A DNA stretch of 64,000 nt from Eledone cirrhosa (taxonomy: Eukaryota): the NCBI GenBank assembly GCA_964016885.1, contig OZ024745.1, forward strand, positions 22,630,001-22,694,000, in the 5' to 3' direction. The notes beneath the pieces are model-generated. The model was given only the letters and a program-made list of their open reading frames with translations, did not search any database and was not told the DNA's origin. This document shows positions 16,185-19,650 of the stretch, piece after piece. Numbering within the stretch: position 1 is the first letter of the stretch; every line of letters begins with the position of its first letter. The position numbers and the translations under genes are program-made.

Positions 16185-16251
16185 ATATATATATATATAT
16201 ATATATATATATATATATATATATATATATTTATTAAAATAACAGATTAAC

Positions 16252-16300
16252 GTTTAAGCAAAGAATCGCTGCTTTCACCCTTAACGGGATCTTCTGAAAC
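16252..16300 (-). ncRNA. type I hammerhead-like ribozyme, CAGAAGA core variant
   Basis: Minus strand: gttt CAGAAGA t-ccc-gttaa-ggg-t GAAA gca-gcgattctt-tgc TT aaac. Confidence 0.7.
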
Positions 16301-17228
16301 TAACAAAGTCAATCTGTAAACGCAGAACTGGATATTTCAAAAAACGTTGCAACCGGAGGAAGACAGGAAGACGATACTTTGGTTCATGGTGACGTTCGCT
16401 GGCAAAGAACGGGAAAAAACGAATAAGATACGTCATTAATAGGAACGGTGAAAAACAATTACGTGCAAGGACAGAACCACGTTTATGGTATAAAAGAGGT
16501 CGTAGACTAATGTACTCTAAGTGGTGCATAGAGACGTTCTCTGGCAATGAACGAAAAAACGAAGATAATAAGTCATATGTGGAGCGTGGAGAACAATAGC
16601 GTGCAAAGCCAAAACCACGTAAATGGTATAGCAGAAGTCGTAGACTAAAATTCTAACTAGGAGACCGAATGAATCTCCGCTACAGAGTTAAGAACGAAGT
16701 AAATAAATACAATACAGAAGTAATAGGAACAAAGAAATACATACACGCAAACAGATACGTACATACACAAGCATACGCAAAACCTTACCATAGGTATACA
16801 AAACCACGCACATATAAATATGTGTATGTGTGTATGCTTGTGTACAAATAAATAAATAATTATATAAACGTATATAAGTAAATAAATACGTATATAACAA
16901 GCGCACACACATACCTACAATTAAATACATGAAGGTTCGGAGACGTAAGTCAACTAAAACAAGAAGTACACATATACACACACCCACCATACGTACGAAC
17001 CTGCATACTCACGCAGACGCAAAACTCCCATATACACATAACCAAGCCCTAAATACCAGAATATGTCAAAATTATACGCCAAAACAGTCAAATATACGTA
17101 CGAGAAGGTATACATACCTTCACAAAACATACGGGTAATATATACTTACCTATGCAAAAAGTAAAGGAAAAAACAAAACATATACTTAGCTCCCACATCA
17201 AGACGTAAATATCCACGTATAGATCGTG

Positions 17229-19358
17229 CTATCCGTTAGGGTATAACGTAGGGCTGTAATACAGGAAAGTTTTGTGCAATTTATGTTTACAAGCCGAAAT
17301 TGCCTCAGATTTTTTGTTTAAGATGTGGTCTGTGGCGTAGAGTATTTCCAGGGCCTCAGCGGTGTAGAGGTCACATGGTCTTTTATTTCCGTTATACGAT
17401 CTAGCCCTAGCTAGGATCTCCCAGTGTAACTTATATTGGGTGTGGTTGTCTTTTAGACTCCAGATATAAGCTGAAAGTGACGTCATATTCCTTCTTAGAG
17501 GGTAACGAAAAGAATGGGTATGCATGTAAAGACGCTGCTTGAAACTATTGGCGGTTAACCCTATGTAGGCCCTACGGGACGTGGGTGTTACAACCTTACA
17601 TTTGTAGACAATGTTACTAGAGAGGTATTTCCCGGATAGGGGACAATCAGCCCGATTCCTACAATTACAGTTAGTACTAACTACAGGGTTGCACGTGTTC
17701 CTACGGCTAGGTATTTTAGCTAAATTTGAAGCTGTGATGTTATGTGCAAGGTTAGGAGTCGTTGAGTAAGAAATTTTAATAGTGTTTCTATTAAAAATTT
17801 TACTATATTTATGTGTAGGGGGAAAATGCTTCGTAATAAGGGAAAGAAAGATCTTAGCTAATGGTGTGGCCACCTCCATATTATATGGTGGGTTAAACCA
17901 ACAAATGCGACGGGATCTATTTCTTCTAGGTCTATTCTCGTACTCTGTATATGCTACCTTATCGACAAACCCACTTCGAGCAAGAGCTTCATTGTAATAA
18001 GTGGAATGGTCGTTGAAAATGCGCTCGTTGGTGGAAAGACGGGAAAGCCTCAACGAAACGTTTTTTGCCAGGTTCTTGGTTATGCTGGCAGGATGGTTGG
18101 AATGCTTACTTATGTAATTAAGCGTATCATTCGGCTTTCTATACGGGTAATGCAACCCATTCAATAAATTGAGGGTAACGTCGAGGTAATTAACGACCGA
18201 GAGATTGGCCTCAACCTGTATAGAGAGGTTGAAGCCTTTAAAGAAGGCTGTGAGTTCTTTTCTGAATCTGTCGCAAGCACGAGGTCCGCACTTAGTCATG
18301 GTCAAAAGACCATCGTCACGGTACAAACCTACGCCCGCGTTGGGGAATTCGTCCTTGATAGAGAAAAGAAGGAAAAGGCCAATAAGATCAGTAACCTCCG
18401 CAGAGTCACTGGCGCCCATACTCACGTCGAATGGGGTACTATTGGATTTTTTAATCCAAATAGAATCGTCGAAATTAATCACCGACTTTCGGGCATTAAG
18501 GATGACATCAACTTCGAAATCCTTAACCACTGTGAGTGTTTTAGCGAAATTGATAGCTCTAAGGAGAAGTGGTAAAGTGATGGAGGAGTAGTAATTGTTG
18601 ATGTCGAATTGGATAAAACGGCAATGTTCCTTGTTACATATGCCGTTGAACCAATCAATCACCGCGAAAGAATTGTTCCACAGTGCGAGAGGGGCCAAAT
18701 TTCTAATTTCAGGTATAATTCTATCAAGAATCGTTTTACTAAGTCTACCTAAATCGGACTTCGTAGGGTTAATAAGCCGAATAGAGGGGTTGTTCTGAAA
18801 ATTGGATTTGTGGTCCTTCAGGGTAAAGTGGGGAGCGATAGGGTCCAGGGGTTCGGTCCGGTCCAGGATGTTGAGATCAGATGTGATTTTAAACCCAGCA
18901 TCGTTGATTTCATTGATGACACACCGATTAGTTTTACGGTAATCCTTAGTTACAGCATTATGTAGTAGTTGATGGTAAGTAGTGCGCTCCACTTGATATA
19001 GGTTGCCAGTTTTGTCGGAATGGATGTGCACGGCGTTAGAATCCTTAATAGAACGAATTCTATTCTTCAGGTCTTGCTGGAAGGAATTGCTCCTATTCCG
19101 AAATTTGATACTCCGAATGAGTTCCAAGACATCATTTTCGAATGGTAGCAATGCTGGGTTCCACGGAGGGTTATTATAGGTTTTAAATCCAAATTTGTCC
19201 TGCTTGTTGTCTGCTTTTCGCGGATTATCGAAATAAAAGGCACGCCAACGCAACCTTTTAATGAACGCGTCAGTTTTCTGTATCAGGAGTTTTAGGTATG
19301 TTTTCCTGCTTGGTACGGGTATGTTCTTTGTAGAAATATTCAGATGTTGTTTCTGCAT
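17229..19358 (-). CDS. PLE polyprotein: reverse transcriptase + Cys linker + GIY-YIG endonuclease (709 aa)
   Basis: SDKTGN, QFDINNYYSSI, MGASDSAEV, GLYRDDGL, NYLDV, YRKP..SNHP, CNC..CP, IVY..YIGLT..FKQR..H, LNKKSE; no internal stop. Confidence 0.93.
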   Translation of the reverse strand: MQKQHLNISTKNIPVPSRKTYLKLLIQKTDAFIKRLRWRAFYFDNPRKADNKQDKFGFKTYNNPPWNPALLPFENDVLELIRSIKFRNRSNSFQQDLKNRIRSIKDSNAVHIHSDKTGNLYQVERTTYHQLLHNAVTKDYRKTNRCVINEINDAGFKITSDLNILDRTEPLDPIAPHFTLKDHKSNFQNNPSIRLINPTKSDLGRLSKTILDRIIPEIRNLAPLALWNNSFAVIDWFNGICNKEHCRFIQFDINNYYSSITLPLLLRAINFAKTLTVVKDFEVDVILNARKSVINFDDSIWIKKSNSTPFDVSMGASDSAEVTDLIGLFLLFSIKDEFPNAGVGLYRDDGLLTMTKCGPRACDRFRKELTAFFKGFNLSIQVEANLSVVNYLDVTLNLLNGLHYPYRKPNDTLNYISKHSNHPASITKNLAKNVSLRLSRLSTNERIFNDHSTYYNEALARSGFVDKVAYTEYENRPRRNRSRRICWFNPPYNMEVATPLAKIFLSLITKHFPPTHKYSKIFNRNTIKISYSTTPNLAHNITASNLAKIPSRRNTCNPVVSTNCNCRNRADCPLSGKYLSSNIVYKCKVVTPTSRRAYIGLTANSFKQRLYMHTHSFRYPLRRNMTSLSAYIWSLKDNHTQYKLHWEILARARSYNGNKRPCDLYTAEALEILYATDHILNKKSEAISACKHKLHKTFLYYSPTLYPNG

Positions 19359-19650
19359 GATGAATATAAGTCAGTAGAGTGCTCAACCGAAGGAGCCAAA
19401 TAGTAATAATAATAAAATTGAAGACTAAAATCCAGAGAGGGCTCGATAAGGAAAATATATATCGAATATATAAGAACCGAAGAGCAAATATTTTAGTCTT
19501 CAATTTTATTATTATTACTATTATTATTATTATTATTATTATTATTATTATTATTACTATATATATATATATATATATATATATATATATATATATATAT
19601 ATATATATATATATATATATATATATATATATATATATATATATATATAT

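Follow-up and report, generated by a model that had tools for sequence, protein, structure and literature searches.

The two ends of a Penelope-like element (PLE) lying on the minus strand of a 64,000-nucleotide window from Eledone cirrhosa (assembly GCA_964016885.1, contig OZ024745.1, positions 22,630,001 to 22,694,000 of the forward strand; coordinates below count from the first letter of this window) are each accompanied by a predicted bulged hairpin, and sequence comparison indicates that this paired, covarying hairpin marks both termini of elements across the Hydra clade of PLEs. We call the two termini S, the short end, and L, the long end; the stretch between them is the tail. The finding is new relative to the literature searched: within open-access literature we found nothing relevant in print on a terminal hairpin pair, and the available text on the Hydra-clade PLEs with C-terminal endonuclease (Craig et al. 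2021, PMC8557442) does not mention it, yet the motif is visible in the consensus sequences of that paper.

16227..19493, minus strand: PLE, one S-to-S unit (sequence comparison)
16227..16232, minus strand: short end S, hexamer AAATAT, identical to the hexamer at 19493-19488 and ambiguous with the (TA)n target
16183..16229, strandless: (TA)n target, left flank
19560..19650, strandless: (TA)n target, right flank
19401..19487, minus strand: tail, the stretch between start sites S and L (sequence comparison; reads)
19438..19485, minus strand: hairpin 1, GCUC-U...A-UC-GAGC-CCU, long loop, 2-8 nt downstream of S (covariance model)
19378..19396, minus strand: hairpin 2, GCUC-C...G-UU-GAGC-ACU, 3-4 nt downstream of L (in the training set of the covariance model)

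S and L each sit a few bases 5′ of a hairpin of the form GCUC-Y...R-UN-GAGC-ACU. A scan of metagenome contigs gave 78 related loci; after removal of 11 same-family duplicates, 27 loci with an unbroken path from ribozyme to ATG were kept, several of which are still related families. Two hairpins were found in 24 of these 27 loci and one in the other 3, against none of 5400 shuffles with two hairpins and a background in open reading frames (ORFs) of 0.02 per 170 nt. For the alignment, 46 of the 51 hairpins (5 near-duplicates being omitted) were combined with hairpin 2 of the window. The four outer base pairs belonged to the search pattern; pair 13:30, which was not selected for, is paired in all 47 sequences, 14 of them through a double, compensatory change. 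Slid controls were 25-54% paired as against 91%, and RNAalifold returned the same structure. The covariance model scored hairpin 1 at 14.8 bits (E 0.12), a weakness that comes from its long loop; it also placed the hairpin beside other short insertions in the window, and gave 42 hits over 42 further loci, several in some loci and none in others.

Among 62 ribozyme hits examined for the 3′ ends of insertions, 36 had no family map, 10 reached the contig end and 16 left the map; 12 of these 16 have their 3′ junction 0-9 nt upstream of a hairpin. The automatic junction walk was noisy and served only for checking individual junctions: one junction shared by L009 and L011 proved to lie 2 nt upstream of the hairpin, the aligner having overshot, whereas L022 (27 nt) and L035 are true misses. 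Hairpin 2 was never included at the 3′ end of any insertion. The hairpins likely tell the reverse transcriptase (RT) where to start.

Four sequencing runs (DNA or unlabelled, X16 being RAD-seq) were mapped on the element, and they show a family that is high-copy and mostly 5′-truncated. In run X1, 123 contigs pass at 19400 into (TA)n, and L is therefore a real terminus. The tail, at 19435, reaches 7 to 350 times the depth of the 5′ ORF and 0.15 to 0.76 of that of the 3′-most bin, contig depths not being copy numbers. The joint of the tail to 16227 occurs in 199 X16 reads with 32 different starts and also in the fragment at 20232, so that the S/tail junction is common as DNA, and reading through the ribozyme site requires no ligation. 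Just upstream of the 3′-most bin, depth drops 2.4-9.1-fold in all four runs. Joints at 16293-16307, which may represent stops at an RNA end, were left uncounted since they coincide with an indel between copies.

17229..19358, minus strand: ORF of 709 amino acids, RT and C-terminal GIY-YIG-type endonuclease (motifs, predicted fold)
16380..16648, minus strand: two direct repeats of ~128 nt in the 3′ untranslated region (UTR), 78% alike
16240..16304, minus strand: hammerhead-like motif of type I with core CAGAAGA (position 4 is A) and a stem III of 5 bp; predicted to cut after 16256 (hand fold)

Judged by domain order, motifs and (TA)n target, the element is a Hydra-clade PLE. This clade is defined by RWK, DKT replacing DKG, a CxCX5C linker, terminal CxxC and CxH, and insertion in (TA)n (PMC8557442). 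Here, a single ORF inserted in (TA)n carries the motif set and appears to encode a telomerase-like RT followed by the endonuclease; RWR, DKT, CNCRNRADC (the CxCx5C linker) and CKH are present, with YIG at residues 598-600. The predicted model (pLDDT 88) has telomerase RT (TERT) as its best fold match in the PDB (E 1.4e-8), and 547 homologues were found at E <= 0.001 among 8000 candidates scored. The protein itself has no Pfam match and no PDB match by sequence; a Pfam GIY-YIG match was obtained for 1 of 27 aligned members, which was not the window's own protein, and no relative was found in viral contigs. An identity as a Naiad/Chlamys PLE, Naiad having been suspected first, was ruled out because the endonuclease motif is C-terminal and not N-terminal. 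Two otherwise conserved Cys positions read Tyr in the window copy, including the second Cys of CxxC, which is Cys in relatives, and this copy may thus be inactive.

The closest known systems are the Hydra-clade PLEs of PMC8557442, especially Hydra-1_Obim. Most members of the clade are below 3 kb, whereas the window element has 3.27 kb with a 3′ UTR of 1 kb; its ribozyme core with A4, its longer stem III and its tail of ~90 nt also set it apart. The hammerhead that an earlier note on this DNA had placed near the 3′ end can be seen by hand folding, with the predicted cut 29 nt from the end rather than about 25; it occupies the place homologous to that of the canonical hammerhead which the clade has near its 3′ end. 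Rfam gave no ribozyme in the window or in the PLE 3′ end, only microsatellite and fold-back miRNA look-alikes below the gathering threshold. An A occupies core position 4 in all four window copies, while relatives have CU in 68 of 69 hits, coming from 55 of the 78 relatives; the window motif also has a CUU triplet. We dropped the A4 core as proof of a dead ribozyme, since position 4 tolerates change (PMC4075628, PMC3088659).

20232..20475, minus strand: same-family fold-back, inverted arm from S 20400-20475 and direct piece 20398-20232 ending at L
55942..56071, minus strand: same-family 3′ fragment ending at S in (TA)n

The use of both termini within single insertions is seen in the fold-backs. 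Five of them in the window, from three families, consist of an inverted arm from S and a direct piece that runs through hairpin 1 to L (this count leaves out 27324-27577 and 32658-32902), and a relative, L010, is built in the same way, with one end of each kind. The full-length copy mirrors them, with its arm from L and its direct copy to S. Three further fold-backs of the window carry the tail on one side, and a tail at one end only is often seen in PLEs (PMC8557442, figure 2 legend; PMC3846280). In 20232-20475 both pieces stop ~8 nt upstream of the ribozyme core, and in 61658-61919 both arms stop ~14 nt upstream of it. These short stops, together with the drop in depth and with a relative, L075, whose start is 10 nt upstream of the core, suggest a linear 5′ RNA end.

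Several other insertions of the window belong to related types. A second PLE-like family, with an RCUC...GAGU variant of the hairpin, is present at 15880-15968, 15989-16185, 28165-28343 and 52762-52957; three of its four insertions are fold-backs that combine an S end with an L end and have their centre in a palindrome of the template. PLE ends with hammerhead core, hairpin and a tail ending in (TA)n lie at 61658-61919 and 33105-33300, and within the former 61717-61919 is a 93% fold-back that scores weakly in Rfam as MIR2670. At 27648-27985 an ACUC/GAGU variant of the hairpin comes after a fold-back, together with a tail that ends in (TA)n. Fold-backs at 19652-20151, 41525-41986 and 50073-50431 form a family with a tail of ~47 nt at one end and no GCUC hairpin, so the one-tail rule holds there with a different signal.

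19490..19521, plus strand: inverted 32-bp arm beginning at L, 32/32 identical to the reverse complement of 19400-19431
19507..19559, plus strand: stuttered arm start, read on the minus strand as TAG(TAA)12 then TAG(TAA)3

The full-length copy, ~3.27 kb long and flanked on both sides by (TA)n, had been described in the earlier note as exactly one circularly permuted unit, and read as the footprint of a circular RNA template. Its minus-strand end GTTATTTTAATAAATAT at 16227, followed by (TA)n, and the start of the direct copy, AAATATTTGCTC at 19493, are correct in coordinates and letters, and the two end sequences are indeed contiguous in 20232-20398 (a 78-nt match of 93.6% identity with the 3′ end and a 95-nt match of 91.6% with the 5′ part). 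The two ends also share the 6 nt AAATAT, but "exactly" holds only to about ±4 nt, because the AT of the overlap fits the (TA)n target and its AAAT fits the arm. As had been claimed, no direct pseudo-long terminal repeat (pLTR) lies upstream, where only the 32-bp inverted arm is found; the same-family fragment 740 bp away is a separate, diverged insertion and not a pLTR of this copy. The joining of the arm through AAAT/ATTT microhomology (19490-19493) and the stutter at its outer end, TAG(TAA)12 TAG(TAA)3 from 19559 to 19507, were both borne out. The stutter, a single case, could mean that a telomerase-related RT copied the sequence repeatedly with realignment, or that a microsatellite expanded there later. 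The unit-length permuted copy is thus real, and structurally it is a known PLE outcome: pLTR-less copies and the idea of a circle are already in print (PMC2377424, PMC8557442 supplement, PMC4209133).

For a single copy, the chance of a 5′ end at S is 3.5-5% under a uniform null, and 10-15% of the possible microhomology joins (3-5 nt required) fall within 4 nt of S, so unit length exceeds chance only weakly. Furthermore, the AAAT at S is the sole acceptor for the observed arm end between the ATG and a point 105 nt upstream of S. As the S/tail junction is also common in DNA, one copy cannot decide the form of the template; unit length alone is ordinary and no proof of a circle.

Fifty loci of relatives carry the ORF start (L040 was added afterwards), and ten show a 5′ junction, which we read by eye. 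In five of the ten (L001, L042, L021, L072 and L026) the start precedes hairpin 2 by 4-21 nt, which places it at L or slightly beyond. The others begin inside hairpin 1 (L012, L038), upstream of the ribozyme (L075 by 10 nt from the core, L040 by 165 nt) or just before the ATG (L011). The cluster at L has a nominal P of 0.002-0.005, in short-read contigs that favour junctions near low-copy sequence. L042 is one unit long, from L to L, with a 5-nt overlap, and lies between TA runs; the window copy also has unit length, L012 (+53 nt), L040 and L075 being longer and L011 shorter. Two junctions on one contig need not derive from one copy. At L001:455-477 an L-ended copy and an ORF copy starting at L are only about nine TA repeats apart, which suggests either that the element inserted beside its own 5′ end or that the assembly joined two sequences through TA. 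Many metagenome contigs have 55-nt terminal repeats; these are assembly loops and were dismissed as evidence for circles.

To the following account of these structures we give about an even chance: twin priming at two hairpin-set sites, with joining by microhomology, on an uncleaved linear transcript, either tandem or started in a pLTR. In L1 twin priming, two target-primed cDNAs made on opposite strands are joined by microhomology, giving a 5′ inversion; here, by contrast, the priming sites are proposed to be fixed by hairpins, and 32 nt of the body are present a second time as the arm. The observed basis consists of the termini S and L, the covarying hairpin 3′ of each, the fold-backs with one S and one L end, and the AAAT join, a stretch of four bases over which the two cDNAs would be complementary at their 3′ ends. 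The pairing of one S with one L end in the fold-backs leads us to propose that two cDNAs were started, one at each site, from opposite strands of the target. The protein, predicted to be a dimer in another PLE, would bind the hairpins, a putative interaction, and nick both strands of (TA)n, so that one cDNA starts at S and one at L. The L cDNA would slip on (UUA)n, restart and stop 32 nt on, leaving 7 nt to hairpin 1, as though an obstacle lay there. The S cDNA would extend through the ribozyme, left uncut, and then through ORF and tail as far as S or slightly past it. The long cDNA was likely trimmed, and its joining at S likely relied on microhomology; the two cDNAs presumably annealed by their 3′ ends at ATTT/AAAT, and each was extended on the other.

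Known systems share many of these elements. In the Poseidon element PAc of Anolis (Frangieh et al. 2024, PMC11167929) the tail is likewise the interval between two internal RT start sites, RNA downstream of these sites is required, the target is AT-rich, both strands are cut and extended, and ribozyme mutants insert normally. The Penelopes of D. virilis and Adineta (PMC2377424, PMC3846280) also show pLTR-less copies, solo ORFs bounded by tails, inverted upstream arms, a tail at one end and microhomology at 5′ joins; they differ in clade and target, and the available text describes no terminal hairpin motif. A PLE transcript start was mapped in the upstream pLTR, and ~30% of copies are tandem (PMC2377424).

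Several points weigh against twin priming on a linear template. No tandem source locus was seen, in what is not a whole-genome view. Four of the five 5′ junctions near L in relatives have no inverted arm, and such starts are unexplained by microhomology joining to a second cDNA, whereas a closed path explains them. As hairpin 2 is never at a 3′ end, the long L-ended copies L010 and L042 need a tandem, a circle, a jump or priming independent of the hairpin. The fold-back centres of other families lie in template palindromes, and the shared stop upstream of the ribozyme could therefore be an effect of joining. Finally, the ribozyme core is strongly conserved in relatives, so its cleavage probably matters somewhere.

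In DNA, a tandem transcript, a jump within one molecule and a circle cannot be told apart by their footprint. The circular template of the earlier note, an idea put forward for PLEs by Cervera and de la Peña in 2014 (PMC4209133), survives as one possible reading of the permuted unit and of the unit-length L042, but not as the only one. Here two ribozymes would cut a transcript and ligation would close it to a circle; after priming at S (and L), the RT would go round once until it met its own primer hybrid. We consider this doubtful, although it agrees with the unit-length copies, with the arm-less starts at L, with a conserved ribozyme that precedes the start sites by 30-130 nt and with the lack of hairpin 2 at every 3′ end. 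It fits poorly with the longer-than-unit copies, with short products whose ends lie 8-14 nt before an intact ribozyme motif, where depth also drops, and with four Naiad families that have no canonical ribozyme and are also marked "no pLTR" (PMC8557442 supplement). For the one PLE studied in vitro, the template is mainly RNA that was not cleaved, and RNA-seq ends do not map to the cut (PMC11167929). Microhomology alone suffices and favours S, the 5′ junction counts rest on short-read contigs biased to junctions near L, and the A4 core with the CUU triplet counts weakly against the circle, given the tolerance of position 4. Taken together, a linear tandem template is somewhat more likely than a circle.

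We found no demonstration of a coding PLE circle in the literature searched. Non-LTR retrozymes similarly have a type I hammerhead in each unit (PMC4209133, PMC7229834, bioRxiv 2026.07.22.740005); their circles differ in being 170-400 nt long, non-coding, derived from tandem arrays and equipped with canonical ribozymes (PMC7229834, bioRxiv 2026.07.22.740005). In a broader form, which we likewise consider doubtful, Hydra-clade PLEs would use a ribozyme-made circular mRNA on which a protein dimer, seated on the two hairpins, primes both strands at S and L, one cDNA running round once and annealing to the other. If true, a single mechanism would account for tail and inverted arm as well as for second-strand synthesis and copies of unit length.

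The path may also be closed without a covalent circle. The RT would start from S, close to the 5′ end of a linear RNA, run off that end, jump or transfer to the 3′ end or the 3′ pLTR of this RNA molecule and stop at its own primer hybrid at S; non-LTR RTs perform such end-to-end template jumping. This route shares the footprint of the circle, and it accommodates both the short run-off products, whose ends lie just before the ribozyme, and L075, which starts there. We think it unlikely: no indel at the predicted cut appears among the gaps listed (12 of 50), the predicted cut is clean in three of the four window copies, and the literature search found no paper on template switching in Penelope pLTRs.

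Less probable still, the 5′ end could be a transcription start, or the boundary of the parent copy, at S or L, through an internal promoter or read-through from the TA-rich flank. The arm-less 5′ ends of relatives near L would suit such a start, and in PMC2377424 the tail repeat scores as a basal promoter and tail-flanked solo ORFs exist; the start mapped there is nevertheless inside the upstream pLTR, and under this reading transcription would have to begin at S in some families and at L in others.

PLEs are the closest retrotransposon relatives of telomerase, and the question is how they form their tails and inverted pLTRs. A covarying hairpin across the clade would be a concrete cis-element near each start site, usable in the published in vitro assay of target-primed reverse transcription, which makes both the choice of start site and the question of the circle testable, and it offers a marker for annotating both PLE ends. 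Should the hairpin indeed determine where copying begins, its role would be like that of the RNA anchor next to the template in telomerase; the stutter of the arm may point to repeats being copied again.

Other PLE remnants and repeats were found in the window. A second, broken Hydra-like RT-endonuclease ORF (DKT, GLYRDDGL, CSCx5C) lies at 34511-36350 on the minus strand, 5′-truncated at (TA)n. Mutually inverted ORF fragments of another PLE-like family (YSRYVDD; YIGET) are at 49190-49921 (plus) and 57423-58475 (minus), and a non-LTR RT fragment (Pfam RVT_1, DUF6451) is at 13636-14688 (plus). The repeat at 55786-56410 (minus) has ends which we take to resemble those of a non-autonomous Helitron. 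A PLE 3′ fragment is inserted within it, and it holds a 52-bp antisense copy of hairpin 1 at 55815-55866, from ATTTGCTC to GAGCCC and 92% identical. The same flank of this hairpin copy occurs in 1026 X16 reads, so the repeat is a separate high-copy family.

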